A DNA stretch of 64,000 nucleotides from a virus, in IMG/VR virus record IMGVR_UViG_3300023174_000050, positions 96,001-160,000 of that record; one strand, written 5' to 3'. The notes beneath the pieces were generated by a model. That model saw only the letters and a program-made list of their open reading frames with translations, made no database searches and was not told the DNA's origin. The translations under genes and the position numbers were made by a program. Position 1 is the first letter of the stretch, and the number at the start of each line of letters is the position of its first letter. Positions 14,477 to 46,655 of this stretch are shown here, in pieces.

Positions 14477-14917
14477 ATGAAATTGACTGAGTTACAAGAT
14501 ACTTGGCAAGAAGATTGTAAGATCAATGAATTAAATTTGGGACAGGAGTCTTTAAAAACTCCTAACCTTCATGCTAAATATTTGACCATGCTATCCTCAG
14601 CTAGACTCAATCTTCGTAAAGCCGAATCAAGTTATCTTAATTGTCGTCGCTTAAAGTATCGATATTACAGGGGTGAGATGACTCAAACAGAACTTGAGCA
14701 AGAGGGTTGGGATCAGTGGCAGGGAAATAAACCATTAAAAAATGAAATGGATGAATTCTTAACTGTTGATTCTGATCTTGTATCTTATCAGGATAAAGTT
14801 GAATATTTTAAAACAGTACTATATCATTTAGAACAAATTATCCGTTCAATTAATAGTAGAGGCTGGGATATAAAAAATGCTATTGAATGGCAAAAATTTA
14901 CCAACGGTATGATGTAA
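14477..14917 (+). CDS. uvsY: Recombination mediator UvsY
   Basis: NLHAKYL, YRYYRG, RGWDIKNAIEWQKF. Confidence 0.9.
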   Translation: MKLTELQDTWQEDCKINELNLGQESLKTPNLHAKYLTMLSSARLNLRKAESSYLNCRRLKYRYYRGEMTQTELEQEGWDQWQGNKPLKNEMDEFLTVDSDLVSYQDKVEYFKTVLYHLEQIIRSINSRGWDIKNAIEWQKFTNGMM

Positions 14918-16398
14918 TGTCAGATATACAATTATCTAAAAAAGATGAAGTTTACCTTAAGGTAAAGTGTGAACCTTCATTGGGGCAAGAATTAAATGAT
15001 CATTTTTCGTTTGATGTTCCCGGTGCCAAGTTTCATCCTTTATACAAGTCTCGTATGTGGGATGGTAAAGTTCGTCTGTATTCTTTGTTTACGCAGGAAT
15101 TATACGTTGGATTAAAAAGTTATCTCGAAAGATTCTGCGAGGAAAGAGATTATACTATAGATTATTCTAATTATGTGGAAGAGGCAGATGCTGCAACTTA
15201 TGATATAGTTAGAAAATTTTGCGAAGATCTTAATATTGGTTCAAATGGTAAACCTCTTGCGATTCGAGATTATCAGATTGATGCAGTATTTCAATCTATA
15301 AAAGATTCAAGAAGATTATTATTATCTCCTACTGGTTCAGGAAAATCTCTTATCATTTATTGTCTAATTCGTTGGCATGAAAGATACGATAGACGACAAT
15401 TAATCTTAGTACCAACCACTTCCCTTGTAGAACAAATGTATTCCGATTTTCAAGATTATTCTTGTTTAAATGGTTGGAAGGCATCGGAACATTGTCATCG
15501 CATTTACGGTGGCCATGAAAAATCAAATGAGTATGATGTTATTATTAGTACATGGCAATCATTATATAAATTACCGAAAACTTTTTTTGCAAATTTTAAA
15601 ACCATATATGGCGATGAGGCACATAATTTTAAAGCAAAATCGTTAACAAGTATTTTAAATAAGTGCACATCTTCTCCTTTTAGGATCGGAACTACAGGTA
15701 CATTGGATGGAACTAAAACTCATAAATTAGTATTGGAAGGTTTGTTTGGTTCAGTATATAAAGTTACTACAACAAAGAAACTTATTTCGGATAACACATT
15801 GGCAGATCTTGAAATTTATAATATAATATTAGAATACAATGATGAGATGCGAAAAGGGTTAAAGGGCAAAACATATCAAGATGAAATGGATTTTATAGTT
15901 CAGTATGAACCACGAAATAAATTTATAAGAAATTTGGCAATCAAACAAGAAGGTAATACTTTAGTGTTATTTCAGTATGTGGAAAAACACGGAAAAATAT
16001 TGTTTGATCTAATACAAGAAAAAGCGAAAAATAGAAAAGTATTTTTTGTGTTTGGAGGTACAGATACAGATCAACGAGAAGATATTCGTCGCATTACTGA
16101 GTTAGAAAAAGATGCAATTATTGTTGCTAGTTATGGAACCTTCTCCACAGGAATAAATATTAAAAATCTGCATAATATTATTTTTGCATCCCCTTCAAAG
16201 TCTAGAATTAGAAATTTACAATCCATTGGTAGAGGATTGAGAACCAGTGAAACTAAAAAAAGTTGCAATTTATATGATATCGCAGATGATTTAACATGGA
16301 AAAGTAAAAAGAACTATACGTTACTTCATATGATTGAAAGAATTAAAATTTATAACGATGAGCATTTCAACTATAAATTAGTAAAGGTACAAATATGA
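14917..16398 (+). CDS. uvsW: SF2 helicase UvsW
   Basis: WDGKVRL, SPTGSGKS, DEAH, QSIGRGLR; start moved to ATG overlapping the uvsY stop. Confidence 0.96.
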   Translation: MSDIQLSKKDEVYLKVKCEPSLGQELNDHFSFDVPGAKFHPLYKSRMWDGKVRLYSLFTQELYVGLKSYLERFCEERDYTIDYSNYVEEADAATYDIVRKFCEDLNIGSNGKPLAIRDYQIDAVFQSIKDSRRLLLSPTGSGKSLIIYCLIRWHERYDRRQLILVPTTSLVEQMYSDFQDYSCLNGWKASEHCHRIYGGHEKSNEYDVIISTWQSLYKLPKTFFANFKTIYGDEAHNFKAKSLTSILNKCTSSPFRIGTTGTLDGTKTHKLVLEGLFGSVYKVTTTKKLISDNTLADLEIYNIILEYNDEMRKGLKGKTYQDEMDFIVQYEPRNKFIRNLAIKQEGNTLVLFQYVEKHGKILFDLIQEKAKNRKVFFVFGGTDTDQREDIRRITELEKDAIIVASYGTFSTGINIKNLHNIIFASPSKSRIRNLQSIGRGLRTSETKKSCNLYDIADDLTWKSKKNYTLLHMIERIKIYNDEHFNYKLVKVQI

Positions 16399-16871
16399 TG
16401 GACAATCTTTACTACAAATATATAAAACTAGTATCAGGGGATGGTATAATTTGTACTACCTTTGATAACTATGAAAATTTATATGATTTAAAAACCATAA
16501 AGGTATCAACCCCTGTGGTATTAAATCCTATTCGCATCCCTAGGGGAGATGTTTTAGTAGAATCTTACATAATGTATCCTTGGTTTAGTTTTTCAGAAGA
16601 AACAGAATATACATTACCCACAACGCAAATTTTATTTGCAGTGAATATTAAAGAAACTTTAAAGAAAAATTATTTAACTTATCTTTCTAATAGAGAAGAT
16701 GAGGGTGAAGATGAACTTATAGACGATGATGAATTTGAAGAAGATGAAGAACTTTTTAATGCACTTTTAAATACCCTAGGAGATGAAATACATGAAGACA
16801 AAGAAAACCAAGAATCCGGAGACGGATCTAATATTGAAAGAGTTGGAAGAACTACAAGAAGACTCCACTAA
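16395..16871 (+). CDS. Hypothetical protein with acidic tail between uvsW and gp55
   Basis: IKLVSGDGII N-terminus (Sm-like start); position typical of T4-like phages. Confidence 0.65.
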   Translation: MMDNLYYKYIKLVSGDGIICTTFDNYENLYDLKTIKVSTPVVLNPIRIPRGDVLVESYIMYPWFSFSEETEYTLPTTQILFAVNIKETLKKNYLTYLSNREDEGEDELIDDDEFEEDEELFNALLNTLGDEIHEDKENQESGDGSNIERVGRTTRRLH

Positions 16872-17421
16872 AACTAAACAACCCGCGCATTACGTAGATA
16901 ACAAAAAATTCTTAGCTGCTCTTATAGATTATAAAGCAAGTATAGATGCGGCTCGCGCAGAAGAAAAACCTACCCCACAGGTACCCAAATATATCGGCGA
17001 ATGCTTTATAAAAATTGCTACTCATTTATCGTATAAATCTAATTTTATAAATTATACTTTTAAAGATGATATGATTTCAGATGGAATTGAAAATTGTCTA
17101 ACTGCAGCTACAAAATTTGATCCAGCCAAATCATCAAATCCATTTGCATACTACACTCAAATTATTTACTTTGCCTTTATTCGCAGAATACAAAAAGAGA
17201 AAAAACATCAGGCAACCAAATACAAAATTATTGAGAATTTAGATTTAGATTCCATTATTCAAAATAGTGATGATTCGGATGCAAGTAGACAACTTGTAGA
17301 CTATTTGAAAAAACAATTGGACAATATTGATCCTGAGAAACGGGAAACTCCCTCAGAAACCAAAACAAGAAAAAGAAAATTAACAGAAAAAGATCAAACT
17401 ATTGTTGACTTCATGAACTAA
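16792..17421 (+). CDS. gp55: Late-transcription sigma factor gp55
   Basis: HYVDNK, FINYTFKDDMISDGIENC, NPFAYYTQIIYFAFIRRIQKEKK. Confidence 0.95.
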   Translation: MKTKKTKNPETDLILKELEELQEDSTKTKQPAHYVDNKKFLAALIDYKASIDAARAEEKPTPQVPKYIGECFIKIATHLSYKSNFINYTFKDDMISDGIENCLTAATKFDPAKSSNPFAYYTQIIYFAFIRRIQKEKKHQATKYKIIENLDLDSIIQNSDDSDASRQLVDYLKKQLDNIDPEKRETPSETKTRKRKLTEKDQTIVDFMN

Positions 17422-17433
17422 AGACTATATAAT
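17405..17433 (+). promoter_or_regulatory. Sigma70-type promoter for the mazG-queE operon
   Basis: TTGACT-17 nt-TATAAT. Confidence 0.75.
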
Positions 17434-17464: not shown

Positions 17465-17743
17465 ATGAATGATTCTAAAAAAGAAGTCATGCTTATTCTT
17501 CAAGAAGAATGCGCAGAAGTGACACAGGCAATCTCAAAATGTTTACGTTTTGGAATAGATGGTGAATATAATGGTGCTACTAATCGAGAAAGATTGACTG
17601 AGGAAATCGGTGATCTTATAGCAATGATTGAACTATGCTACGATAACGACATTGTAGATTACTTACAAGTCAAAGAAGCACAGCATAGAAAATTTGATAA
17701 ATTAAAAAAATGGTCTACAATATATGAAACTGAAAATATCTGA
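17465..17743 (+). CDS. MazG-like nucleotide pyrophosphohydrolase
   Basis: QEECAEVTQAISK and EEIGDL motifs. Confidence 0.8.
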   Translation: MNDSKKEVMLILQEECAEVTQAISKCLRFGIDGEYNGATNRERLTEEIGDLIAMIELCYDNDIVDYLQVKEAQHRKFDKLKKWSTIYETENI

Positions 17744-18569
17744 ATTATTTTATAGTATACAAGGTGAGGGTCGCTTTATGGGCGTCCCTTCTATCTTTTT
17801 AAGAACCTTTGGTTGCAATTTTACTTGCGGTGGTTTTGGAATGCCAAAGGGACAAATGAGTGAAGAAAGGTCAAAAATAAATGCAACATCTTTTAAGAAT
17901 TATCGGGATCTTCCTTTGGTCGATACTGGGTGCGATAGCTACGCTAGTTGGGATGTCAATTTTAAGCATCTTAGTCCCGTTATGGACATTCAAAGTATCG
18001 TTACAAGAATATTAGCAGAGTTACCGCACAAAGAATGGAAAGATGAGCATCTAGTAATTACTGGGGGCGAACCTTTATTAGGATGGCAAAAAGCATATCC
18101 CGATTTATTGGAATATAAAGGAATGCGAGATCTTGCCGAGCTTACTTTTGAAACTAATGGTACTCAAATGTTAAGTGCAGATTTTGAGGAATATTTATTT
18201 CAAGATTGGACTAGATTTGGTCGCAGATATAGTAATCTAACATTTTCGGTTTCTCCTAAATTATCTGTATCTGGGGAGAAATGGGAAGACGCAATTAAAC
18301 CAGATGTTGTGTCTCAATATCAAAGTGTAGGATATACCTATTTGAAATTTGTAGTAGCAACAAAAGAAGATGCAGAAGAAGCAGAGCAAGCAGTAAATGA
18401 ATATCGTAAAAAAGGTTTTGGCGGTCCTGTTTATCTTATGCCTCTTGGTGGCACCGAGCAGTTGTACTCTCTTAATAATCGGGCGGTGGCAGAATTGGCA
18501 TTGCGAAAAGGTTGGAGGTATTCCGATAGATTACAGATCCCATTGTTTAAGAATGCCTGGGGAACATAA
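17724..18569 (+). CDS. queE: 7-carboxy-7-deazaguanine synthase QueE (radical SAM)
   Basis: SELFYSIQGEG, FLRTFGCNFTC, ITGGEP, FETNGT, SVSPKL. Confidence 0.93.
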   Translation: MKLKISELFYSIQGEGRFMGVPSIFLRTFGCNFTCGGFGMPKGQMSEERSKINATSFKNYRDLPLVDTGCDSYASWDVNFKHLSPVMDIQSIVTRILAELPHKEWKDEHLVITGGEPLLGWQKAYPDLLEYKGMRDLAELTFETNGTQMLSADFEEYLFQDWTRFGRRYSNLTFSVSPKLSVSGEKWEDAIKPDVVSQYQSVGYTYLKFVVATKEDAEEAEQAVNEYRKKGFGGPVYLMPLGGTEQLYSLNNRAVAELALRKGWRYSDRLQIPLFKNAWGT

Positions 18570-18576
18570 ATACTAA

Positions 18577-18633
18577 TGCTACACAAAGGTAGCGAATTTC
18601 AATCATCACATCCGCGTAAGGAAGGATTCAAAA
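18577..18633 (+). promoter_or_regulatory. Candidate structured leader upstream of folE
   Basis: GCTAC/GTAGC hairpin, then TCC-GCGTAA-GGA or ATCC/GGAT pairings that cover the AGGAAGG SD; CATAAATA at 18565-18572. Confidence 0.4.
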
Positions 18634-19314
18634 ATGTCATACAACAAAACAAAAACTGACCCTGAACTTGGTCTAAAGGTTCACGAACATCTTGTCAAAA
18701 TGGGTGTTGAAACGCCATATGAAGATAATGATATAGATCGCAAAATTAAAATTGAACTTATAGAAAAAGCTTTTAGTACAATTATGCGAACACTCGGATT
18801 GAATTTATCTGATGATAGTTTAATGGAAACTCCTAATCGTGTTGCTAAGATGTATGTTAACGAAATCTTTTGGGGTTTAGATTACGATGCTTTTCCAAAA
18901 TGTACAACCGTCGATAACAAGATGAAGTATAATGAAATGGTATGCGAGCGTAATATTAATGTACAATCCAATTGCGAGCATCACTTCGTAGTTATTGATG
19001 GGCTTGCTACTGTGGCATATGTTCCTAAAGATAAAGTTTTAGGTCTTTCTAAAATTAATCGTATTGTAGAATATTTTAGTAAGCGTCCTCAGATTCAGGA
19101 AAGATTGACTGAACAAGTATTTCATACATTACAATATATTCTTGATACAGAGGATGTTGCTGTTATGATTGATGCACAACACTATTGCGTTAAGAGCCGA
19201 GGAGTTGAAGATACTGGTAGTTCTACAGTTACAGTAAGATTAGGCGGTGGATTTAAAAATGATCCTGCTGCTAGAAATGAATTTTTAAGTATTGCAAGAA
19301 TGGGTAAAAAATGA
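18634..19314 (+). CDS. folE: GTP cyclohydrolase I FolE
   Basis: ETPNRVAKM, CEHH, GLSKINRIV, RPQIQERLT, CVKSRG. Confidence 0.97.
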   Translation: MSYNKTKTDPELGLKVHEHLVKMGVETPYEDNDIDRKIKIELIEKAFSTIMRTLGLNLSDDSLMETPNRVAKMYVNEIFWGLDYDAFPKCTTVDNKMKYNEMVCERNINVQSNCEHHFVVIDGLATVAYVPKDKVLGLSKINRIVEYFSKRPQIQERLTEQVFHTLQYILDTEDVAVMIDAQHYCVKSRGVEDTGSSTVTVRLGGGFKNDPAARNEFLSIARMGKK

Positions 19315-19820
19315 CAGTTAATATAATGGTTGACTTAGAGACAATGTCAACAAGATCACATGCAGCCATTTGTTCAATTGGTGCAGTAAAATTTGAAGGT
19401 AAAGAAATACTTGATACTTTTTATTGCACTGTGGATATTAAAACTTGTAAAGATGCAGGAATGCATATTTCAAAAGATACCGTTAAGTGGTGGTCAGAAC
19501 AAAATAAAGAAGCACTACGAGAACTTACTCGTAACAATATTCCTTTGGATGAGGCATTAACAAGTTTTGAGGAATGGTTCGGTCCTAAGAGTTTGCCTGT
19601 ATGGGGCAATGGTGCAGTGTTTGATAATACTATTTTAGCCAATGCATATTTTAACACTGATAGAGAACCACCTTGGAAATGTTGGGATGATCGTTGCTAT
19701 AGAACAGTTAAGGCATTATTCCATTGGGTGCCTGCAGATGCAAGAGAAGGTGTTTATCATAATGCCTTAGATGATGCAATGCACCAAACTAAACATCTAA
19801 TTAAAATATTAGGTGAATAA
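19311..19820 (+). CDS. DEDD-family 3'-5' exonuclease
   Basis: MVDLET, WGNGAVFD, HNALDDA. Confidence 0.85.
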   Translation: MTVNIMVDLETMSTRSHAAICSIGAVKFEGKEILDTFYCTVDIKTCKDAGMHISKDTVKWWSEQNKEALRELTRNNIPLDEALTSFEEWFGPKSLPVWGNGAVFDNTILANAYFNTDREPPWKCWDDRCYRTVKALFHWVPADAREGVYHNALDDAMHQTKHLIKILGE

Positions 19821-21187
19821 TGAAAACTTATCATAAGCGTATTGCCTTTTGTTTAAGTGATCAACATACTATTCCTCATGGTGGTCTAGGGCAATTTGCC
19901 AAATCCTTTATTGAGAATTTTGTTCCGCTTGGATATAAAGTAGATATTATATCTGATAAACCTACATCCAATATTGACTTCAAAGCGTATCTAGAAAGTC
20001 AAGGTGCAAATTTTGTTTATCCTTCGGATGTTCGACCATATAGTACACATACCAAAACATTCATGTTTGAGGATTCCTATAACTTTGAAAAGATGAGTAA
20101 TTTTAGAGATGCTATGATGAAAGCTCTAAACACAAATCTATATGATATTATTATTTGTAATACATTAGAATCCTTTCCGGGGATTTATGCTTTAAACATT
20201 CACAAATCAATTCAAGTTATTTACTATACTCACAATGAAAGTATGGTGTTCTTAGATGATAGAACATGGAAGAATGAATTTACAGAATCATTTAATGAAT
20301 TGTTCAATGCATTAATGAAGGTCAAAGGTATAACCATTGGTACACAAACTCTAAGAAATAATTACGAACTTCAAGCACATGGTATTACTAACTCATATGA
20401 ACTTCCTATTCCAATGACTGAAAAAAGTTTATTGGTCGAACATAATAAACCAAGAGAGGGTGTTTTATGGATTGGTCGTTGGGAACCAAGAAAGAATCCC
20501 GAGGAGTTTATTCGTGTAATTAAAGAAACAGGATTGCCTGCAAAAGTAATTACTAATACTAATGGTGCCAAAAAATTTGAAGAAGCCCTAAAAGCAATAG
20601 GTGCTAAATATGAAATAAGGATAGGTGTATATGGTCAGGAAAAAGTTGACTTTATAACAAGTGCTCGAGTTGCATATAATCCTGCAATTAGAGAAAGTTT
20701 TGGATTAGCATTTTATGAATGTATGGGTCATTTACCTACTGTTGCTATAACAGGTATGTCCTGGTTAGATAACTTTGGCAGACACTGGTATTTTTGTGAG
20801 GATAAGAAAAATATCCCATCTTTAATAACTAAACTATATGAAGATTTTGAAAAGTCTGAAGTTTGGTATAGTAAAAATCCATTACATAATATTATTACAC
20901 AACATGAAATGGGTATACAAGCATGGATAGATATTTTTAATTCGTTCAAACCGGTCGAATCAAATTCTATCAGAGCAACGATTAATGAATATTCGGAAAT
21001 TGAATATTCCGAGTTTATTAAAATACTAAATAGGAAAGATTTGTCTATAGATGATGTTAAATCTGTATTGACAAATAAGTACAAATATAATATAATTTAT
21101 ACTGATACGAGCACATACCTATCAAAAGATCCAAACTTTGTACCTAAAGAAAAAGAAACAACTAATTTAGAAAGTCTATTCGCATGA
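19820..21187 (+). CDS. GT-B (GT4-like) glycosyltransferase with C-terminal extension
   Basis: PHGGLGQF, IGRWEPRKN, ESFGLAFYE (E-x7-E); ends LESLFA. Confidence 0.85.
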   Translation: MKTYHKRIAFCLSDQHTIPHGGLGQFAKSFIENFVPLGYKVDIISDKPTSNIDFKAYLESQGANFVYPSDVRPYSTHTKTFMFEDSYNFEKMSNFRDAMMKALNTNLYDIIICNTLESFPGIYALNIHKSIQVIYYTHNESMVFLDDRTWKNEFTESFNELFNALMKVKGITIGTQTLRNNYELQAHGITNSYELPIPMTEKSLLVEHNKPREGVLWIGRWEPRKNPEEFIRVIKETGLPAKVITNTNGAKKFEEALKAIGAKYEIRIGVYGQEKVDFITSARVAYNPAIRESFGLAFYECMGHLPTVAITGMSWLDNFGRHWYFCEDKKNIPSLITKLYEDFEKSEVWYSKNPLHNIITQHEMGIQAWIDIFNSFKPVESNSIRATINEYSEIEYSEFIKILNRKDLSIDDVKSVLTNKYKYNIIYTDTSTYLSKDPNFVPKEKETTNLESLFA

Positions 21188-22473
21188 GCAAAATTTTAGA
21201 ATATGTTATATCTGGTCCTGCATATTTGCGATTAGGTGCAGAACAATGTAATGACCCCGAAACCTTGCAGATGATTCTAGACTTAATTAATAAGACAGTA
21301 CATAAAAAGAACAACCATGAATTTTCTTTATTATATAATGGTTTTACAGAAAAGAATTTCGGTAAAAAATTACAAAAATTTAGACCTGCTATTAAAAATA
21401 TTCATGCTGACTCTGGTGGTTTGCAGATTATTACGCGCGGTCTCCAAAATACGCCTGAGACTCGTAATAAGGTTTATGAGAATCAAGGTGGTTTTGCTGA
21501 TATAGGAATGGCATTTGATGAGATTCCCGTTAAGTCTACTTCTGCAAGTGGCACATCTGCAAAGATTGATACCAAGCGTAGATATGTTGATACGGAAAAT
21601 TTTGAGTCGTATGCGAGAGCAACAGGCAAGAATGTTAAAGATCAAATTTTAAAATTTGATTCTATGAAAAGTAATTGTAGACCCTTTGCTATTTTACAGG
21701 GTTCAGGTGCAGACACTTATGCCAAATGGGCAGAATGTATGTTGGATGAGATTCCAAAAGAACTACATTCTCGCATTGGCGGTGTGGCTATGGGATCAGC
21801 TGCGTTAGGTATGGGGCCACTTGAAGATGTTAAACGAGCATTTTATGTTAATGCTGTTCCATTTGAGAGACCATTTCATTTGCACGTATTGGGAGTTGGG
21901 GCACTTAAACGTATTTTACCTTATCTATTATTTAGTCAAACTGGTCTATATGAAGGCGTAGATATTTCGTATGACTCTACTACACATTCTATGTCATTAG
22001 ATAATGGATTATTTTATTTCTCACACTGCAAGAAAAATAGTCCAAGTGATTATGGCGGTTCTTCTGTTAAGATGGGAAGAGAATATTCTAACATCTATAG
22101 AACAGTAACTGAAGAAATTAATAACGTATGCGGAACAGACTATACTCCAGAACAATATCATAAACTAATGAATATTGCAGTAGGCGAGTATATTGAAAAG
22201 GGTGGAAAATTTATAGATGTGATGAAAGCGCGTCTATCTTTTATTCTAACTAATGTTCATAATTTTACAATGGATGTTTCTGAACTAATGAATTCTAAGG
22301 AAAACTTCTTAAGATTCTGCAGAGATAAAAATTGTGAGAATGAATATTCTACATTATTTGACGTAAAAACCACAGAGGATTTTCTATACTGGGAAAAGCA
22401 TGTTGGTAAATTTATGGATTCGGAGCCAGTCAATTCTGTAGCTCCATCATCACTAGAGGACTTATTTGCATGA
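21184..22473 (+). CDS. dpdA: DpdA-like TGT-family DNA 7-deazaguanine transglycosylase
   Basis: HADSGGLQ, AFDEIP, ILQG, HLHVLGVG, SYDSTTH TGT-barrel motifs; located in the que cluster; ends LEDLFA. Confidence 0.82.
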   Translation: MSKILEYVISGPAYLRLGAEQCNDPETLQMILDLINKTVHKKNNHEFSLLYNGFTEKNFGKKLQKFRPAIKNIHADSGGLQIITRGLQNTPETRNKVYENQGGFADIGMAFDEIPVKSTSASGTSAKIDTKRRYVDTENFESYARATGKNVKDQILKFDSMKSNCRPFAILQGSGADTYAKWAECMLDEIPKELHSRIGGVAMGSAALGMGPLEDVKRAFYVNAVPFERPFHLHVLGVGALKRILPYLLFSQTGLYEGVDISYDSTTHSMSLDNGLFYFSHCKKNSPSDYGGSSVKMGREYSNIYRTVTEEINNVCGTDYTPEQYHKLMNIAVGEYIEKGGKFIDVMKARLSFILTNVHNFTMDVSELMNSKENFLRFCRDKNCENEYSTLFDVKTTEDFLYWEKHVGKFMDSEPVNSVAPSSLEDLFA

Positions 22474-22862
22474 GTATGTTTACATTAAATAAAAGTTATA
22501 TCTGGGTAACCTTTCGTAAAGAAGGTATCCATAAGTATCCTGCTGCCGCAACTGATCCAAAGTTGGCTACAGGCGATTGGTTGGATGTTTCCTTTTTAGG
22601 TACGCCTCATAGGCATATTTTTCATTTTAAAGTTGAAATGCAAGTGTTTCATGATAACAGAGATGTGGAATTTATTCAGGCAAAGCGTATTATGGAACGA
22701 TGGTATTCTGATGGCACATTACAATTAGATCATAAATCATGCGAAATGATGGCAAGAGAATTGTATGCCAAATGTCTTGAGCAATGGCCCTCAAGATGTT
22801 ATACTATAGAAGTATCAGAAGATGGTGAGAATGGTTGTAGACTTGTTTTTGAGGAAAGATAA
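22470..22862 (+). CDS. T-fold QueD paralogue, DpdL-like (putative CDG decarboxylase)
   Basis: LGTPHRHIF (LxxxHRHxF), SCEM, VSEDGENG; directly after dpdA. Confidence 0.65.
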   Translation: MSMFTLNKSYIWVTFRKEGIHKYPAAATDPKLATGDWLDVSFLGTPHRHIFHFKVEMQVFHDNRDVEFIQAKRIMERWYSDGTLQLDHKSCEMMARELYAKCLEQWPSRCYTIEVSEDGENGCRLVFEER

Positions 22863-24043
22863 TGGGTAAATTATATTATATGGGTTTAGAGCCCTATGAA
22901 GGTAGATACACACTACAGTTGCAGCAATGGAACGAGGCAGCATTTAAGCGTCGTGGTATTGATTATGAAATTATTCATGGTGATACTTTAGATGATACTA
23001 AAGCTATTGTTACAGGACAAGTTCTTGATGCACATGGTCGCAGTTATTATTCTTTAACACAGATGGCGAATCTTGTTAAGAAAATGAAGGCAGGAGAAAT
23101 TACTTGGGAGGATAAAATTTTCTTTGAAGATATGTTTACTCCCGGTATTGAGGCATTGCCATATATTATGGATCAGGTTGAATGGCAATATAAACCTCAG
23201 GTATATGTTAGATGCCTTGCACAATCTATTGATCCCGACGATTTTCTCCATGTACATGGAATGAATAGATGGATGTCTTTATATGAGAAGATGACTATTG
23301 AGTTTGCAACTGTTCTTGCTTCCAATGAAGAAATGGTTGCCCATATGAAAATAGCAGGATGGGAAGTTCCAATTTATAATATTTCAGGATTGGCATTTGA
23401 CAAAAATGAAGTTCAAAGTCGTGTTGCAGAAATTAAACCATTCATTAATCGTAAAAAGCGAGTGGTGTTTGCTGCAAGATTTGATCAAGAAAAACAACCC
23501 GGTTTCTTTATGGATTTGGTAGAAGAATATGGTCAAGAACATAGAGATGTGGAATTTGCTGTTTTATCGGGTGGACCTTTACGTAGCAATGCGGAGCATT
23601 ATTTGGAAAGAGCAAGAGAATTAGAAAAGACTGCTAATTTTAAAATATACGAAAATCTTAAAAAGAATGAATACTATGAATTGCTTGCCGATTCTAGAGT
23701 ATTATTTAATTGTGCTTTGCAGGATTGGGTAAGTAATACAGCATCGGAAGCAGATTCACTGGGTACAAATTGTTTATATCCTGCGTATCGTTCTTTCCCC
23801 GAGACATTTGCTAATGATAATGAATGTTTATATATTCCTTGGTCTATGGAAGATGCTAAAGAAAAATTAGATAAACTATTAGTTACTCCTAGAAAAAATA
23901 TGGGTAAGTTATCAGACTGGACATCTGGTACTATTGATAGATGTCTAGATATTATGTTTCCGGATGCAGAGTTTGATTTAAGCTATCAGTGGTATAGAGG
24001 TGCAAATGATTATAGAAACTACACAAAAGAATCCAAATACTAA
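22862..24043 (+). CDS. GT-B glycosyltransferase
   Basis: FAARFDQEKQP, YYELLADSRVLFNCALQDWVSNTASEA (D-x7-E), LYPAYRSFPE. Confidence 0.8.
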   Translation: MGKLYYMGLEPYEGRYTLQLQQWNEAAFKRRGIDYEIIHGDTLDDTKAIVTGQVLDAHGRSYYSLTQMANLVKKMKAGEITWEDKIFFEDMFTPGIEALPYIMDQVEWQYKPQVYVRCLAQSIDPDDFLHVHGMNRWMSLYEKMTIEFATVLASNEEMVAHMKIAGWEVPIYNISGLAFDKNEVQSRVAEIKPFINRKKRVVFAARFDQEKQPGFFMDLVEEYGQEHRDVEFAVLSGGPLRSNAEHYLERARELEKTANFKIYENLKKNEYYELLADSRVLFNCALQDWVSNTASEADSLGTNCLYPAYRSFPETFANDNECLYIPWSMEDAKEKLDKLLVTPRKNMGKLSDWTSGTIDRCLDIMFPDAEFDLSYQWYRGANDYRNYTKESKY

Positions 24044-25046
24044 AGTTATCGTAACAGGTGCCGCCGGTTATATCGGTGGCGCTATTTGTATCGAACTTAA
24101 AAAACAGGGTTATACTGTTATTGGAGTTGATCGAAGAAAGCTACCAAAGCATCTTGAAAAGTATGTAGATACTTTTGTCAATGAATGTTTTACTCACCCG
24201 TTTTCCTTAGAACATCTTGAGAGTAATCCCATTGCAGTTATACATTGCGCAGGAACAAGTTTAGTTGGTCCAAGTATAGAAAATCCTTCGGAATATTATG
24301 ATAACAATGTAGCTAAAACTCTAAAGTATTTAGATTATATTCGTCGTTGGTCATCTATTACCAAATTTATTTTTAGTAGTAGCGCATCTGTTTATGGATC
24401 ACCTGATACCGCAGTTATATTTGAAGGAACAAGAACAGAACCCATTTCTCCATATGGTGAATCTAAATTAATGACAGAGAAAATGTTACATTGGTTTGAA
24501 AAGGCATATGGATTAAATTATGTGTCGTTTAGATACTTCAATGCCTGTGGTGCAGTTGAAGGTGGGCTACATGGACAAGAACCAGGGGCAACGCATATCC
24601 TTGCTAGATTATTTGAAGCTGCAATGTCAAAAGAAGATTTTACTCTGAATGGTGTAAATTTTCCTACACCTGATGGAACGTGTGTCAGAGATTATATTCA
24701 TGTTACTGATATTGCCAAAGCACATATCTTGGCTATTGAGGAAAATATCAAAGGGATATATAATATAGGATCAATAAAAGGTTATTCTAATTTAGAAATT
24801 TTTACGAAGGTTGAAAATTATCTAATAGATGAAGAGTTATTACATGATGGTATTATAATGCATGTCGAAAAAGCACGCGAAGGTGATCCCGCAATGTTAG
24901 TTGCAAATTCTGATAGATTACAAAAAGAATCTTCGTGGAAACCTGAAAGAAATATTGATACAATTATAGATGATCTACATGCATGGTATCTTTCGCCTGC
25001 ATATGAGAAACTACAAAAGAGGTCTCCGGCATTCACCCCTCTCTAA
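24006..25046 (+). CDS. galE: UDP-glucose 4-epimerase-like extended SDR
   Basis: TGAAGYIG, FSSSASVYG, YGESK, FRYFNACG, DGTCVRDYIHV. Confidence 0.9.
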   Translation: MIIETTQKNPNTKVIVTGAAGYIGGAICIELKKQGYTVIGVDRRKLPKHLEKYVDTFVNECFTHPFSLEHLESNPIAVIHCAGTSLVGPSIENPSEYYDNNVAKTLKYLDYIRRWSSITKFIFSSSASVYGSPDTAVIFEGTRTEPISPYGESKLMTEKMLHWFEKAYGLNYVSFRYFNACGAVEGGLHGQEPGATHILARLFEAAMSKEDFTLNGVNFPTPDGTCVRDYIHVTDIAKAHILAIEENIKGIYNIGSIKGYSNLEIFTKVENYLIDEELLHDGIIMHVEKAREGDPAMLVANSDRLQKESSWKPERNIDTIIDDLHAWYLSPAYEKLQKRSPAFTPL

Positions 25047-25086
25047 ATATTCTGCATGTCATCAAACTTACTCAAGGAGGCAAGAG
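25018..25086 (+). ncRNA. Candidate preQ1-I-like pseudoknot riboswitch upstream of queD
   Basis: P1 AGAGG/CCTCT, loop GGCAT pairs with downstream ATGTC, and alternative GTCTCC/GGAGGC pairing hides the SD. Confidence 0.5.
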
Positions 25087-25563
25087 ATGACAAAATTTAT
25101 CTCAACAAAAACTTATAAACAAATAGGACCCGTAGCATATAGACAATGGAGAGCAGATAGTCACTGCAATCTAATTCATGGTTATGCTTTATCTTTTCAT
25201 TTCGAATTCGAATGTGATACTTTAGATGCTCGCAACTGGTGTATGGACTTTGGAGGATTAAAAGATCTAAAACATAATCTAGAAGATTGGTTCGACCATA
25301 CATTACTTGTAGCAGAAGATGATCCTAAACGTGAAGAATTACTACACTTAGGTAAAATTGGTCTTGCTAAAATTACAGAAGTTGAAAAGACAGGATGTGA
25401 AGGCATTGCAGATTTTTTATATGAATATGTAAATACAATTTATTTACCAATGTATGGTAAAACAGAAGCTGAAAGAATCTGGTGCTGCAAGGTTGAAGTA
25501 CGAGAAACAGATTCTAATATGGCAATGCGCGTAGGTCACAGGGAAGATAATGAATTCCAATGA
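25087..25563 (+). CDS. queD: 6-carboxy-tetrahydropterin synthase QueD
   Basis: SHCNLIHGY, MDFGGLK, FDHTLLV, TGCEGIA; GGAGG SD. Confidence 0.9.
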   Translation: MTKFISTKTYKQIGPVAYRQWRADSHCNLIHGYALSFHFEFECDTLDARNWCMDFGGLKDLKHNLEDWFDHTLLVAEDDPKREELLHLGKIGLAKITEVEKTGCEGIADFLYEYVNTIYLPMYGKTEAERIWCCKVEVRETDSNMAMRVGHREDNEFQ

Positions 25564-26038
25564 TAAATCTAATTTACTAAAAGGTCGCAATAGTGTCGAT
25601 GCTAATCTTAGCGGAACCGTTGTTGCATTTTTTAATCGTAATATAAGTGAATATCCTACAGAACAGGGTGCATTTTTTGCACCCGTTGTTGTAGAAAAAG
25701 AAAAAGATATTTCACTCAATATTGCTAAACAACACGCCAAGCAAGAATATGATAGAATCATGGAAATGGTTCGTGTTCTAGAAGAACAGGCAAAACAATT
25801 AGTTAGTAGATTAGACGCAACTGAAGTAGTCCATAAAACAACTTTTTCCTTTACTCCTGTGCACGGCAGGGTATATCATATTTACCACAATGACCACAAT
25901 CAAACAAATCAAATGAGTTTAATTGGTCCGACCGAATGGTGTGCCGGTCCAGGAGAACATTTAAAATTTGTAGTATCTGTTCGTAAAAAAGGTGATTCAA
26001 CTTGGGAATATATAGATGAAGATAGCGTTAGTAACTGA
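25550..26038 (+). CDS. Hypothetical protein (DUF2452-like)
   Basis: YPTEQGA, AKQEYDRIME, FTPVHGRVYHIY; family call from memory. Confidence 0.55.
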   Translation: MNSNDKSNLLKGRNSVDANLSGTVVAFFNRNISEYPTEQGAFFAPVVVEKEKDISLNIAKQHAKQEYDRIMEMVRVLEEQAKQLVSRLDATEVVHKTTFSFTPVHGRVYHIYHNDHNQTNQMSLIGPTEWCAGPGEHLKFVVSVRKKGDSTWEYIDEDSVSN

Positions 26039-27080
26039 CACCCACTTTGGGGCAAGGTCGGATTCTTTACAATTTGATTTATATTTTAAAAAATTTTATA
26101 ATGATATATTTTTCCCCGAATTAGATAAACGGGGAATTAAAGATGTAATACATTTGGGTGATTGTTTTGATCGCAGAAAATATATCAATTTTAATTCTTT
26201 AAAATCTTGCAAAGAATATTTCTTTGAACAATTAAATGTTCGCGGAATTCATATGGACATGATTGTTGGCAATCATGATACATTCTATAAAAATACAAAT
26301 GATGTAAATTCTCCAGAATTATTGCTAGGGGAATATCCCAACTTAACCACATATGATAAAGCTGAAATTGTTAGTTATGACGGATTAAAGATTTTATTAA
26401 TGCCATGGATATGCGCTGATAATTGGGAGCACTCATCTAAACTAATACAAAGCAATATATCAGAAGTTTGCTTTGGGCATTTAGAACTTGCGGGTTTTGT
26501 GATGTTCAAAGGTCAAGATACCCATATAGATCATTCTGGGTTAGATCCTACAATCTTTAAAAATTATAAACTAGTATGCTCAGGACATTTTCATCATAAA
26601 CATGGCAAAGGTAATGTAGAATATTTAGGCAATCCATATCAATTATTCTGGAATGATTTTGAGGATGATCGAGGATTTCATATATTTGATACTAATACAT
26701 TGCAGTTGGAGTTTATAAAAAATCCTTATACTATATTTGAAAAATATTATTACGATGATGAAAAAGAAGATCCATTAACAGTTGATCCTTCTAGATTCAA
26801 TTCAAAACTAATCAAAATTATTGTAGTAAATAAAAAGGACTTTTATAAATTCGACAAATTTATAGAGGCAATTTACAAGGAAAATCCTATTGAAGTAAAA
26901 ATCATTGAGGACTTTTCCGAATTTGAAACTGAGGCATTAGATGAAACTATTGACTTAGAAGATACTATGACATTATTATCAAACTATGTCGATGGTATAG
27001 AAACTGATGCGGATAAAGAAAGACTAAAGAGTATATTAAAAACTCTTTATGTCGAAGCACAACACTATGAGGAAGTATGA
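26016..27080 (+). CDS. gp47: Recombination nuclease gp47 (Mre11/SbcD-like)
   Basis: TDTHFG, HLGDCFD, VGNHD, SGHFHH. Confidence 0.95.
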   Translation: MKIALVTDTHFGARSDSLQFDLYFKKFYNDIFFPELDKRGIKDVIHLGDCFDRRKYINFNSLKSCKEYFFEQLNVRGIHMDMIVGNHDTFYKNTNDVNSPELLLGEYPNLTTYDKAEIVSYDGLKILLMPWICADNWEHSSKLIQSNISEVCFGHLELAGFVMFKGQDTHIDHSGLDPTIFKNYKLVCSGHFHHKHGKGNVEYLGNPYQLFWNDFEDDRGFHIFDTNTLQLEFIKNPYTIFEKYYYDDEKEDPLTVDPSRFNSKLIKIIVVNKKDFYKFDKFIEAIYKENPIEVKIIEDFSEFETEALDETIDLEDTMTLLSNYVDGIETDADKERLKSILKTLYVEAQHYEEV

Positions 27081-28795
27081 TAAGATTTACGAATGTTAGA
27101 TGGAAAAATTTCTTATCCACTGGTGCGCAATTCACAGAAGTAAAATTAGATAAAACAACTACTACACTTATCGTAGGTGAAAATGGTGCAGGTAAAAGTA
27201 CCATTCTTGATGCTATTTGTTTTTGTTTATTCAATAAACCTTTTAGGAATATTAATAAACCTCAGTTGATGAATAGTATCAATGGTAAAAATTTACAGGT
27301 GGAATTAGAGTTTTCCATTGGACCAAAGGATTATAAAATTGTTCGAGGCATTAAGCCTGGTATATTTGAAATCTATGTAAACGGCTCGTTATTAAATCAA
27401 GATGCTGCATCAAAAGATTACCAAAAATATCTTGAGGATGCTATTCTAAAATTAAACTATAAATCATTTACTCAGATTGTTATTCTTGGCAGTGCATCTT
27501 TTACACCGTTTATGCAGTTGCCGTTAAGTCACAGAAGAGAAATTATTGAAGACATTTTAGATATCCAAATTTTTACTGTGATGAATTCTGTTCTTAAAGA
27601 TAAAAATATTGAAATCAAAACTAAAATAACAGACATTGATACTAAAATTGAACTTGGCAAAAACAAAGTTAAATTGCAACAGCAATACATTACAACATTA
27701 GAGAATGACAAACAAAGGAAGGTAGAGGATGTCCAAAAGCGAATACTTGAATCGACTGAAGAAATATCACAGCTTACATTGTTGGTCGACGCTGAAAAAG
27801 AATCGGAAGGAAATCTTAAATCCTCGATACAAGACTCCCCTGAGAAACGTAACCGATATACGGAAATGGGAACTTTACTTAGAAAACTTACCGAGCGAAT
27901 TAAGACACAGGAAAGCAGTATTCAATTTTACCACGAACATGACCTTTGTCCGACATGCAACCAAGATTTGGATGCAAATCTCAAACACTCAGCAATCTCA
28001 CTTCATACACATAAACTCGAGGAAGTACAAGCAGCAATACAAGCCCTTACCGTTCAACTTAATGATACCGAAACTAGACTTAATGAGATTGCTGATATCG
28101 AATCGAAAATCTCTGAACATCAGGGCAATATCATACAACTCAATTCAAGAATCATTGCCGGGCAAAGTTACATTCATAAACTCCAGAGCGAATTGGCAAG
28201 AGACACTACAGATACAACAAACCTGGAAGATGAAAAGAGGAAGCTCAAAACTCTGGCAAAAGAAGTCGTCGCGCATGCAGATGATAAAACGAAGCTTAAT
28301 GAAGATAAACATTACCTCGATATCGCATCCGTACTTCTTAAGGACACCGGCATTAAGACTAAGATCATCCGTCAGTATCTGCCCGTAATTAATAAACTTG
28401 TAAACAAGTATTTACAGGCAATGGATTTCTTTTGTCACTTTGAATTGGATGAAACATTTAATGAATCAATTAAATCTAGACATCGAGATGAATTCTCATA
28501 CGCATCATTTAGTGAGGGTGAGAAACAACGTATTGATTTAGCATTGTTATTTACATGGAGAACAATTGCCAAGATGAAGAATTGTGCTAGCACAAATCTC
28601 TTGTTACTTGATGAGGTTTTTGATTCTTCTTTAGATGCTAACGGTACAGATTACGTGATGAACTTAATAAATACGTTAGGCGAAGAGACTAATGTATTTG
28701 TTATTAGTCACAAGGGAGATCTTCTTTTTGATAAATTTAGAAGTATTATAAAATTTGAGAAGTATCAAAACTTTTCTAGAATACAAGGAAATTGA
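27077..28795 (+). CDS. gp46: Recombination ATPase gp46 (Rad50/SbcC-like)
   Basis: GENGAGKST, CPTC zinc hook, FSEGEKQRIDL, LDEVFD. Confidence 0.96.
   Translation: MIRFTNVRWKNFLSTGAQFTEVKLDKTTTTLIVGENGAGKSTILDAICFCLFNKPFRNINKPQLMNSINGKNLQVELEFSIGPKDYKIVRGIKPGIFEIYVNGSLLNQDAASKDYQKYLEDAILKLNYKSFTQIVILGSASFTPFMQLPLSHRREIIEDILDIQIFTVMNSVLKDKNIEIKTKITDIDTKIELGKNKVKLQQQYITTLENDKQRKVEDVQKRILESTEEISQLTLLVDAEKESEGNLKSSIQDSPEKRNRYTEMGTLLRKLTERIKTQESSIQFYHEHDLCPTCNQDLDANLKHSAISLHTHKLEEVQAAIQALTVQLNDTETRLNEIADIESKISEHQGNIIQLNSRIIAGQSYIHKLQSELARDTTDTTNLEDEKRKLKTLAKEVVAHADDKTKLNEDKHYLDIASVLLKDTGIKTKIIRQYLPVINKLVNKYLQAMDFFCHFELDETFNESIKSRHRDEFSYASFSEGEKQRIDLALLFTWRTIAKMKNCASTNLLLLDEVFDSSLDANGTDYVMNLINTLGEETNVFVISHKGDLLFDKFRSIIKFEKYQNFSRIQGN
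27729..28388 (+). CDS. Candidate overprinted basic protein in the +1 frame of gp46
   Basis: 219 stop-free codons; AAGGAAGG SD 6 nt before ATG; shifted gp46 codon use. Confidence 0.4.
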   Translation: MSKSEYLNRLKKYHSLHCWSTLKKNRKEILNPRYKTPLRNVTDIRKWELYLENLPSELRHRKAVFNFTTNMTFVRHATKIWMQISNTQQSHFIHINSRKYKQQYKPLPFNLMIPKLDLMRLLISNRKSLNIRAISYNSIQESLPGKVTFINSRANWQETLQIQQTWKMKRGSSKLWQKKSSRMQMIKRSLMKINITSISHPYFLRTPALRLRSSVSICP

Positions 28796-33148: not shown

Positions 33149-33985
33149 ATGCACACTAACGAAATATTACACGATACCTTTATCCCAAGATGGTATGGAA
33201 GATTGGGAAACAATATACAGCAAATTTCTAATGCTATTTATTTCTGTAGAGAAAATGGAATACATTTTACATCTCCAGATCATCCCATGATTAAAGCAAT
33301 AGATATTCCTTTTGGAACAATAGAATACAAAATACCAGAAACAAGCAATAACTGGTTTTATCACTTCGAAAAAGAATATAGCGATTTTGATGTAGACATA
33401 GATAGATTAAATTTGCTACGAAAAAATATTTGTGAGGATTATATTTTACCTAATCTAAAAGTAGATCATGAAAAATTAAAAGAACCATTACCGTATGATA
33501 CTTTAGTTGTACATATACGAAGTGGAGATATTTATACTAATTTTCCAAATACTCATCCACAAAATCCTTTGATGTACTATATAGAATTATATAGAAGATT
33601 CAATGAAAAGGTTATTTTTGTGGCAGAAGATGATAAGAATCCGATTGTACAATATTTTCAAAGTATCAAGGCGGATATTAGAATATGGTGGGTTGAAGAT
33701 ACGTATACATTATTATTACGAGCACAAAACCTAGCGACTTCTGGCGCAGGATCTTTTGCAATATCATCTGCATTTTGTTCTACAAATCTTAGGAATTTTT
33801 ATTGTACAGATTTATATATAGACCATAGTTTAAATCCGACTATGTTAAAAGAACAACTTAATGTTTTTATAGCGGATGTCTCAGGCAATAAATATTTTAG
33901 AGTGGGTGAGTGGAGCTCAGCTAAAAATAACATCAATAAAATTCTTGACTATCAAGAAAATATAATATTTAGGAGACTTACATAA
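33149..33985 (+). CDS. GT11-like glycosyltransferase
   Basis: [10 protein letters not shown] and VVHIRSGD resemble GT11 motifs GxGNQ and HxRRGD. Confidence 0.55.
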
Positions 33986-34998
33986 TGACAAACAAAGTAG
34001 CCCTTATTACGGGCATTACCGGACAAGACGGTTCTTATCTTGCAGAACTTCTTTTATCAAAAGGTTACGAAGTGCATGGCATTGTTCGTCGTAGCTCTTC
34101 TATGAATACTGGTCGCATCGACCACATCTATTCAAATCCAAATTTACATCTTCATTACGGTGACGTAACAGATTCACTCTCTATTATGAGCGTACTTAAA
34201 AAGTATAATCCTAGTGAGATCTATAATCTTGCGGCGCAAAGTCATGTTAAGGTTTCTTTTGAAACTCCTGAGTATACAGCAATGGTAGATGGTTTAGGTA
34301 CTCTTAAAATTCTAGAATCTGTTAGATTAATGGGGATGGAAAAGACTACTAAAATTTATCAGGCATCAACATCTGAACTATATGGATTAGTTCAAGAAAT
34401 CCCACAAAAAGAAACAACACCATTCTATCCAAGATCGCCGTACGGTGTAGCTAAGTTATATGCATATTGGATTGTTAAGAACTATCGAGAATCATATAAT
34501 ATGTTTGCGTGTTCTGGTATTTTATTTAATCACGAATCTCCTAGACGAGGTTTCAATTTTGTGACTAAAAAGATTGTTAATGGATTAGAAGCAGTTAGCG
34601 CTGGTCGCCAAGAGTGTTTGACATTGGGCAATTTAACAGCACTTAGGGATTGGGGTCACGCTAAAGATTATGTTGAGGCAATGTGGTTAATGCTACAACA
34701 AGATACGCCAGACGATTTTGTTATCTCAACAGGTGAGCAGTATACAGTTAAACAATTTGTAGAACATTGTGCCCCATACTTTGCTTTAAAGATTCGCTGG
34801 GAAGGCGAAGGATTGAACGAAGTAGGTATTGATACTAACACGAATAAAGTAGTTATCAGAGTTGATCCTAAATACTTCCGTCCCGCCGAAGTTCAAACTT
34901 TATTAGGCGATTCGTCAAAGGCAAGGAGTGTGCTCGGTTGGTCACCTAAACATTCTTTTGATGACCTAGTCGAAGATATGTGTTTAAACTTTGCATAA
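33985..34998 (+). CDS. gmd: GDP-mannose 4,6-dehydratase
   Basis: [42 protein letters not shown]. Confidence 0.97.
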
Positions 34999-34999
34999 T

Positions 35000-35635
35000 A
35001 TGTTTCCTCCTTCATACAAAGATACAAATAGAGCAGTTACAGAAAAATATTTAAACTATGATAATGGTTTTTATATTGAAGTAGGTGGCGCCGATGGTAT
35101 TACTCAAAGTAATACTTGGCACCTTGAAATGTATAAAAAATGGACCGGTATATTGGTTGAACCAAATCCTAACGCTGCAAAACAGTGCAGAAACAATAGA
35201 CCAAATTCTACAGTATTCAATTATGCTTTGGTCGGTGACAATTTTGAAAACGATACTATAAAAATGTTGTATCGTACAGTATACGGAGACGACCCAGGAT
35301 TAATGACTTCTACTATAGATTCTCCTATTAGACAAAATTTAGAATGGATGGCACCTGCAACTGATACTGATAAAACTGAGGAATTTGAAATTCAAGTAGC
35401 TACATTGAATGATATTTTAGAATCACAAAATGTAACAAAAATAGATTTCTTTTCGTTGGATGTTGAAGGATATGAATTAGAAGTATTGAAAGGATTAGAT
35501 TTGAAAAGATTTACTCCAAAAGTTATTTTAGTTGAATGGCATTTGGATTTTGAAGATATTAAACAGTTGTTAGATGCGACACACGTATACGCAGAACAAT
35601 TAACTAAACATGATTATGTTTTTTTAGCGAGGTAA
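35000..35635 (+). CDS. FkbM-family methyltransferase
   Basis: IEVGGADG, SLDVEGYELEVL. Confidence 0.85.
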   Translation: MFPPSYKDTNRAVTEKYLNYDNGFYIEVGGADGITQSNTWHLEMYKKWTGILVEPNPNAAKQCRNNRPNSTVFNYALVGDNFENDTIKMLYRTVYGDDPGLMTSTIDSPIRQNLEWMAPATDTDKTEEFEIQVATLNDILESQNVTKIDFFSLDVEGYELEVLKGLDLKRFTPKVILVEWHLDFEDIKQLLDATHVYAEQLTKHDYVFLAR

Positions 35636-35636
35636 T

Positions 35637-43606: not shown

Positions 43607-43607
43607 T

Positions 43608-44615: not shown

Positions 44616-44617
44616 GA

Positions 44618-46653: not shown

Positions 46654-46655
46654 TA

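Follow-up and report, generated by a model that had tools for sequence, protein, structure and literature searches.

We analysed a 64,000-nt window of viral DNA (bases 96001-160000 of a complete 190,131-bp IMG/VR virus record) and describe here an operon at 17465-25563 that most likely, in a judgment somewhat better than even, swaps guanine in the phage DNA for a 7-deazaguanine made independently of QueC, with glycosylation to follow. Its ten + strand open reading frames (ORFs) encode, in this order, MazG, QueE, FolE, an exonuclease, a first glycosyltransferase (GT1), DpdA, DpdL, a second glycosyltransferase (GT2), GalE, and QueD (Table 1). The source genome is that of a T4-like myovirus, and the operon occupies its gp55/gp47 slot. 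We are fairly sure that the two glycosyltransferases are part of the deazaguanine DNA-modification pathway. The linkage of their genes to those for deazaguanine, the missing pyrimidine handles, and a C-terminal tail common to GT1, DpdA, and the DNA polymerase together favor the addition of a sugar within this pathway.

Linkage of the glycosyltransferases to deazaguanine genes

A scan of IMG/VR for GT1 yielded 80 loci, onto which the proteins of the window were then mapped. Four of the loci end just upstream of GT1; in all 76 loci with an upstream flank, deazaguanine genes (QueE, FolE, QueD, DpdL, or DpdA) lie beside it. The loci of group 1 belong to the T4-like lineage (63-91% identity) and keep the gene order of the window between gp55 and gp47, with a divergent GT2-like gene in place of GT2 and GalE in some contigs. 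Those of group 2 come from 335-367-kb jumbo phages (45-49% identity) and have the order DpdA'-x-DpdL-GT2-FolE-QueD-QueE-GT1-SDR, SDR being a short-chain dehydrogenase/reductase. DpdA' (490-546 aa, with the motif LGDSGGFQ) is distant from the DpdA of the window (hhalign 93%, E 3e-7) and 34% identical to EST35_0316 of phage PA5oct. In Synechococcus phage BUCT-ZZ01 the order is QueE-PRT-x-QueD-FolE-GT1-DpdA-DpdL-GT2-Exo, where PRT and Exo stand for a phosphoribosyltransferase and the exonuclease. The profile search for GT1 homologues yielded close relatives only and leaves distant contexts uncovered. A GT1-like gene of Xanthomonas phage X1 (28% identity) was rejected as an orthologue; it lies outside the cluster and has no clamp tail.

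The GT2 of the window, searched by tblastn, gave matches in 5 of 50,697 phage records, all adjoining dpdA: BUCT-ZZ01, Acidovorax phage ACP17 (two records), X1, and BUDD. In ACP17, the GT2-like protein ASD50404 is encoded between DpdA (ASD50403) and DpdL (ASD50405, with LGSPHRHLF). When this ACP17 protein was the query, 23 records were found, adding the PA5oct group, Sinorhizobium phage Phosso, and Burkholderia BCSR5 to the carriers; five Ep026-type records were left out of the neighborhood inspection, and in all six groups looked at (ACP17, BUCT-ZZ01, X1/BUDD, the PA5oct group, Phosso, and BCSR5) the gene is near or beside dpdL or dpdA. Further IMG/VR loci found with the ACP17 protein were deazaguanine clusters in every case (39/39), in several architectures. 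Abundant marine T4-like relatives have DpdA-x-DpdL-GT2-like-QueD in the gp55/gp47 slot and no GT1. The GT2-like family, which falls into two subfamilies, is essentially confined to dpdA/dpdL neighborhoods, and this in unrelated phage lineages. The distribution of DpdL is wider than that of the glycosyltransferase, and Cellulophaga phage phiST has none of the latter. An earlier note on this DNA had proposed asking whether the linkage of the two glycosyltransferases with dpdA and dpdL is conserved in relatives; the answer is strongly positive, for GT1 in the flanked loci and for GT2 in the further loci and the cultured phages.

This linkage bears on the idea that the glycosyltransferases and GalE serve as auxiliary genes in glycosylating the host cell surface, lipids, or proteins and came by chance to sit in a hypervariable T4-like slot. 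The nearest solved structures are indeed cell-envelope GT4 enzymes, JGI labels the homologues "glycosyltransferase involved in cell wall biosynthesis," and a separate glycan island is found at 33-47 kb. The linkage, however, outlasts rearrangement of gene order, change of lineage, and replacement of the DpdA subfamily; GT1 bears a conserved clamp-type tail that co-varies with that of the polymerase; and none of the phage records inspected has a GT2-like gene outside a deazaguanine cluster. We regard this explanation as very improbable.

Clamp-binding-type tails

The hydrophobic/acidic C-termini of gp43, gp55, and gp33 in T4/RB69 are the epitope that binds the sliding clamp gp45 (PMC2988020). 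GT1 and DpdA have the trait of this class of gp45 clients, a short hydrophobic/acidic terminal peptide behind a flexible linker that resembles the tail of the cognate polymerase. In the model of GT1, the tail is preceded by a linker of low confidence (low predicted local distance difference test, pLDDT, at residues 440-455). By a loose pattern, an L..LF-type C-terminus occurs in 4 of the 259 ORFs of the genome, namely GT1, DpdA, gp43, and a 142-aa ORF. This last one (genome positions 1794-2222, outside the window, + strand) ends in LKLEKLF and may be a further clamp client or a chance match.

The tail is retained in 55 distinct GT1 and 20 distinct DpdA homologues and co-varies, across five lineages, with the polymerase tail of each phage. 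In the window, the polymerase ends in ATLEGLFG, DpdA in SSLEDLFA, and GT1 in TTNLESLFA; the corresponding tails in BUCT-ZZ01 are STLDDFFS, ASLDSFFD, and GSLEDFFND. ACP17, where GT1 is absent, has PSLDDLFE on the polymerase and TTLDELFE on DpdA, and X1, with no GT1 orthologue, has SSLESLFG and QSLEELFG. The polymerases of the jumbo lineage end in TF(N/D)xLF(T/S/E)(F/L)x, GT1 in xLF(E/S)(G/F)x, and one form of DpdA' in FNELFEF. A search for gp45 in five records of this lineage gave no match, the clamp probably being too divergent for it, so that the tail argument there rests solely on likeness to the phages' own polymerase tails. GT2 has no clamp-type tail, and the T4 glycosyltransferases are likewise tail-less. 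From these sequences, DpdA and GT1 most likely act on clamp-loaded, newly replicated DNA.

Absence of pyrimidine handles

The complete genome encodes ThyX and has neither a ThyA-family hydroxymethylase (gp42-type) nor a C5 cytosine methyltransferase; it therefore encodes none of the hydroxymethyl-pyrimidine handles known for DNA glycosylation. A search of the genome for Tet/JBP enzymes gave no match, and the control genomes were silent too.

The glycosyltransferases might instead modify another DNA base or the backbone, through a handle of the hydroxymethylcytosine (hmC) or hydroxymethyluracil (hmU) type, and share the operon with dpdA only as anti-restriction modules do. In the T4 map, a-gt lies between genes 55 and 47, which is the very slot of the operon. 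Phage glycosyltransferases are also reported to decorate 5hmC with diverse glycans (bioRxiv 10.1101/2023.12.21.572611). The lack of both handle-making enzymes in a complete genome and the near confinement of the GT2 family to the sides of dpdA/dpdL in unrelated phages make this very improbable. By exclusion, the most likely acceptor of the sugar is the inserted deazaguanine.

Proposed synthesis and insertion of the deazaguanine

FolE, QueD, and QueE belong to families whose synthesis of 7-carboxy-7-deazaguanine (CDG) is established enzymology. QueC was not found in the complete genome by a search that was positive in 14 of 14 control genomes; what the phage itself encodes therefore leads no further than CDG or the DpdL product, 7-deazaguanine (DG; dDG in DNA), as in phiST and ACP17.

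DpdL of the window carries LGTPHRHIF, which fits the published signature LxxxHRHxF replacing CxxxHGH of QueD-like proteins (PMC10516641). It is 56% identical to the DpdL of ACP17 (3e-35) and 33% identical to that of phiST (CGPG_00067, 4e-9), and the genomic setting is the one expected for this enzyme, with FolE, QueD, QueE, and DpdA present and QueC absent. The decarboxylation of CDG by DpdL is a published proposal, which has the free base as the predicted substrate (PMC10516641).

The predicted transglycosylase DpdA is 33% identical to ASD50403 over 100% of its length (tblastn, 4e-59) and ~31% identical, over 85% of the length (~1e-46), to the single TGT-like protein of KVP40-type vibriophages, which we infer to be the published DpdA2 gene. 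An alignment of 20 homologues has HADSGGLQ and LGVG (LHVLGVG) invariant, which we take to be the core catalytic motifs of TGT-type enzymes (a DSGGFQ-like Asp loop and the LGVG strand); by hhalign (93%), these motifs line up with those of the second DpdA subfamily. An Atlas feature search placed the protein at 0.95 to a cluster with Pfam TGT in 30% of the members and at 0.90 to a PF23859 DpdA cluster. The dpdA gene of ACP17 was named in PMC10516641 and was inactive in E. coli; dpdL and dpdA of this phage alone gave no dDG in that host, and the authors suspected missing enzymes (PMC10516641).

Some accessory proteins recur in the clusters of other phages. A small phosphoribosyltransferase-like protein is found in marine T4-like phages, BUCT-ZZ01, and PA5oct (loci L096, 6310-6816; L001, 5748-6209; L099, 8324-8758), and may point to base salvage or a nucleotide-level branch in its carriers. 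For the phage of the window, a nucleotide-level route is unsupported, since this protein has no homologue in the genome. Several lineages have a protein of ~132 aa (ASD50402 in ACP17) between DpdL and either DpdA' or FolE (L084, 5320-5718, with homologues in L127, L130, L131, and L137-L140); it is not in the operon of the window. PA5oct also encodes a short Rossmann/SDR-like protein, EST35_0320 (L099, 7794-8312), that resembles the N-terminus of GalE (31% over 71 aa); sugar-nucleotide tailoring genes therefore accompany the glycosyltransferase in this lineage too.

The glycosyltransferases and the proposed route

The model of GT1 (pLDDT 87.8) has a GT-B fold and matches MshA with a Foldseek E of 3.5e-12, its best PDB matches being MshA, sucrose-phosphate synthase, BshA, TarM, and PglA; the Glycos_transf_1 score of 21.7 lies below the gathering score of 26.4. 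The GT2 model (pLDDT 77.6) is also of the GT-B fold, with PimA, BshA, and BGluT tied at a VIA Z of ~22 over ~318 residues. For the two together, the best structure matches are retaining GT4-type enzymes, glycogen synthase and OtsA included. Motifs were assigned by eye: in 34 GT1 sequences, GRWExxK (R220, K225) and E292-x7-E300 are invariant, and in 25 GT2 sequences, R206, K211, and D288-x7-E296, a DX7E variant of EX7E. With GT-B folds in the models and the EX7E/DX7E and R...K donor motifs retained, both transferases look catalytically competent. Neither has a PHROG or Pfam match to the T4 alpha-GT or beta-GT families. The T4 enzymes are not among the top structure matches listed, which is still compatible with a distant relation.

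In the route that we propose, the operon would be expressed early, and FolE, QueD, and QueE would make CDG, which DpdL would decarboxylate to 7-deazaguanine as suggested in the literature. DpdA, docked on gp45 through its polymerase-like C-terminal peptide, would exchange G for the deazaguanine in newly replicated DNA, and GT1, bearing the same docking peptide, would add a sugar to the DNA. GT2, tail-less, acidic, and paired with DpdL/DpdA, would glycosylate either DNA or the free base ahead of its insertion, while GalE would provide a 4-epimerised UDP-sugar. Candidate acceptor atoms are the C7 carboxyl of CDG in DNA (dCDG; a glycosyl ester), the exocyclic N2 (for which huimycin is a precedent), and C7/C8 of dDG (a C-glycoside). 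Action of GT2 on the free base, ahead of insertion, would fit its missing tail, its acidity, its close pairing with DpdL, and the failure of dpdL and dpdA of ACP17 to give dDG in E. coli; the T4 glycosyltransferases, however, are tail-less as well.

From the transferases and the epimerase, the earlier note had supposed a sugar in the deazaguanine system, possibly galactose (Gal) or N-acetylgalactosamine (GalNAc). The addition of a sugar within the pathway is favored by the linkage, the missing pyrimidine handles, and the tail common to GT1 and DpdA. Its identity did not fare as well: Gal/GalNAc is only a guess, because GalE, the least conserved member of the operon, is missing from BUCT-ZZ01, and the jumbo-phage lineage has another SDR in its place. 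The analogy that the note drew with glucosyl-hmC of T4 holds at the level of function, but homology to the T4 alpha- and beta-GT was not found.

Several observations weigh against the proposed route. phiST makes dDG via DpdL without any glycosyltransferase, so that the glycosyltransferase adds a tailoring step on which dDG does not depend. At C7, dDG offers no evident hydroxyl, amine, or carboxyl group as a handle, and we know of no GT4 enzyme that C-glycosylates. The DpdA of the window has no Pfam or NCBIfam match, Pfam TGT was silent against the whole genome at E <= 1, and PDB-sequence searches (phmmer and profile) with DpdA and the second DpdA subfamily gave nothing usable; the published DpdA3 and DpdA4 are likewise detectable only by HHpred (PMC10516641). 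Glycosyltransferases are not rare in this genome, given its separate large glycan island. In addition, structure searches cannot tell DNA-acting from small-molecule GT4 enzymes.

It is possible, though we think it rather unlikely, that the transferases, GT2 especially, act on a free small molecule, either the deazaguanine base before its insertion by DpdA or a pterin derived from FolE/QueD-type intermediates, giving a glycoside as cyanobacterial BGluT does with tetrahydrobiopterin. BGluT structures (5zes, 9v0l, 9v0w) are among the tied top matches of both models (Z 21-22), but they match no better than a dozen unrelated GT4 enzymes, and the operon is without a sepiapterin-reductase-type step. 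Acidic (pI 4.8-6.1) and without a clamp tail, the GT2 family would suit a small-molecule acceptor as well as it would DNA; isoelectric points gave no decisive signal. GT2 is also paired with DpdL, its start overlapping the DpdL stop, and DpdL is the predicted free-base enzyme (PMC10516641). Moreover, the GT4-type HuiG N-glycosylates a free preQ0-derived deazapurine on the way to huimycin (bioRxiv 10.64898/2026.04.15.718813). The polymerase-type clamp tail of GT1, however, would be purposeless on a small-molecule enzyme, and the glycosyltransferases track DpdA/DpdL clusters, not FolE/PTPS alone. A glycosylated base inserted by DpdA would, besides, still yield the glycosylated DNA that we favor.

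Operon layout and genome setting

All ten genes of the operon were found as the earlier note had them, co-oriented and mostly overlapping, with overlaps of 1-4 nt between most neighbors. The arrangement is not chance, because the identical order recurs in dozens of independent contigs. The sigma-70 promoter that the note had placed ahead of them was also located, as an 11/12 consensus match in the gap between gp55 and mazG. The region shows no general excess of promoter-like sites (54 versus 47 +/- 8 in shuffles). At 21068-21096, within the 3' end of GT1 and ~90 nt upstream of the dpdA start, lies a perfect 12/12 sigma-70 consensus (TTGACA-17-TATAAT), a possible internal promoter of dpdA-dpdL-GT2. 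The 162-aa ORF that follows queD, for which a PHROG search gave no match, contains a bidirectional terminator-like hairpin (GGGTGCA-loop-TGCACCC) at 25666-25684.

MazG is found in only a fraction of the related contigs, while the synteny of the exonuclease is kept in group 1 contigs, BUCT-ZZ01, and the marine relatives. The true start of QueD is probably downstream of 24970, because the domain starts near residue 41-56. The longest ORF for gp45 begins at 47730, 9 codons upstream of the common start of its homologues (MQISNETIQ...), and its true start is probably the one given in Table 1.

Table 1. Positions in the window of the operon, its tails and promoter, and the flanking T4-like genes
Feature	Position	Strand	Evidence or remark
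UvsW	14887-16398		Upstream of operon
gp55	16783-17421		Upstream of operon
Sigma-70-like promoter, TTGACT-17-TATAAT	17405-17433	+	Consensus match only
MazG-like NTP pyrophosphohydrolase, 92 aa	17465-17743	+	PF03819, phrog_4856
QueE-like radical-SAM CDG synthase	17724-18569	+	phrog_2076 at 1e-51; NCBIfam QueE models weak, below cut-offs
FolE, GTP cyclohydrolase I	18634-19314	+	PF01227 at 1e-61
Rv2179c-like DEDD 3'-5' exonuclease	19311-19820	+	PF16473 at 1.6e-46
GT1, predicted GT-B/GT4-like retaining glycosyltransferase with extra C-terminal domain and flexible tail	19820-21187	+	Pfam GT1/GT4 weak
GT1 clamp-binding-type C-terminal peptide, TTNLESLFA	21161-21184	+	Resembles gp43 tail
DpdA-like DNA-guanine transglycosylase (predicted), 429 aa	21184-22473	+	phrog_10773; homology to ACP17 DpdA
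DpdA clamp-binding-type C-terminal peptide, SSLEDLFA	22447-22470	+	Resembles gp43 tail
DpdL, QueD-like T-fold, proposed CDG decarboxylase, 130 aa	22470-22862	+	LGTPHRHIF
GT2, predicted GT-B/GT4-like glycosyltransferase	22862-24043	+	PF00534, 28.4 bits vs gathering score 26.4
GalE, UDP-hexose 4-epimerase	24000-25046	+	TIGR01179, 268.1 bits vs cut-off 262.3
QueD, 6-carboxytetrahydropterin synthase	24970-25563	+	PF01242, phrog_2389
gp47 + gp46	26016-28795		Downstream of operon
gp45 sliding clamp, presumed docking partner of GT1, DpdA, and gp43 tails	47757-48413	+	PF09116
gp43 DNA polymerase	54445-56934	+	Ends ATLEGLFG

Between gp46 and gp45, separate from the operon, lies a glycan-biosynthesis island (33149-47477) with genes for a GDP-mannose 4,6-dehydratase, a GDP-fucose-synthase-like SDR, a DegT aminotransferase, a GT10 fucosyltransferase, a transferase of the GT2 family, a Zn-dehydrogenase, and a transketolase/E1-like protein. 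Its candidate targets are the host envelope, the virion, or donor sugars for the DNA glycosyltransferases.

Megablast of the operon against the 50,697 phage records gave zero matches. The gp43 of the window is at most 49% identical (<=49%) to cyanomyovirus polymerases, and a cultured close relative is therefore lacking.

Significance and comparison with known systems

To our knowledge, all sugar-bearing DNA bases are pyrimidines (glucosyl- and arabinosyl-hmC, base J, and glucosylated hmU derivatives), and all eight known phage 7-deazaguanines are sugar-free. The full-text literature searched (open-access papers and bioRxiv) describes neither a glycosylated deazaguanine in DNA nor a glycosyltransferase in dpdA clusters. 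We give an even chance to the fuller claim that the operon makes the first glycosylated purine analogue in DNA, in a replication-coupled hypermodification of G where dDG/dCDG would be inserted by a clamp-tethered transglycosylase and given one or two sugars by GT4-type enzymes, one of them clamp-riding. That the same system would be widespread in freshwater and marine T4-like and jumbo phages, including the cultured PA5oct, ACP17, and BUCT-ZZ01, is just as evenly poised. If the claim is true, DNA would gain a new class of base in the glycosylated deazaguanine, which would also account for the failure of dpdL and dpdA alone to give dDG in E. coli. The DNA of PA5oct contains a modified G whose structure was not determined (PMC12191111); the base proposed here would possibly identify this modified G of PA5oct-type phages, which is sensed by END nucleases. 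With clamp tails on a DNA transglycosylase and a glycosyltransferase, base-modifying enzymes would join the sliding-clamp "toolbelt," and high-coverage, replication-coupled modification would have a mechanism. Because several carriers are cultured, the prediction is directly testable.

Among known systems, the biosynthesis of huimycin and dapiramicin is similar in that a GT4-type enzyme (HuiG) glycosylates a deazapurine made by FolE, QueD, and QueE, but its product is a free secondary metabolite derived from preQ0 with QueC, and neither DpdA nor a nucleic acid takes part. In animal tRNA, QTGAL and QTMAN/GTDC1 form galactosyl- and mannosyl-queuosine by adding the sugar after insertion by a transglycosylase, and QTMAN is a GT4-type GT-B enzyme. 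These too are glycosylated 7-deazaguanine derivatives in a nucleic acid; the nucleic acid is RNA, however, and the sugar is on the hydroxyl of the cyclopentenediol, a group that the pathway of the window cannot make.

Glucosyl-hmC of the T-even phages is also a post-replicative sugar on a non-canonical base, added from UDP-sugars by GT-B enzymes that are encoded in the gp55-gp47 region and swapped between relatives. The phage of the window differs in having no hmC pathway, no detectable sequence relation of its transferases to GT63/GT72, and presumably a purine analogue as acceptor, and the T4 enzymes have not been described with a clamp-docking tail. KVP40-like vibriophages (nt-1 and VH7D; DpdA2; preQ0, preQ1, mdPreQ1, and dG+) resemble it as T4-like myoviruses with a ~31% identical DpdA, whereas they carry QueC (with QueF, DpdM, or ArcS), modify <1% of G, and have neither DpdL nor a GT2-like gene.

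The likeness to the DpdL-type dDG/dCDG system of phiST and to the cluster of ACP17 includes FolE, QueD, and QueE without QueC and a DpdL with LxxxHRHxF (Cui, Hutinet et al., NAR 2023, PMC10516641). With ACP17, the window also has in common a transglycosylase of the DpdA family (33% identity), and with phiST, by its annotation, a MazG, which in that phage adjoins dpdL. In the searched text of PMC10516641, the GT2-like gene between dpdA and dpdL of ACP17 is not mentioned. We count the polymerase-like clamp tail on DpdA and GT1 as a difference of the window from these systems and, while phiST uses DpdA3 and no glycosyltransferase, the operon described here adds two GT4-like glycosyltransferases and GalE.

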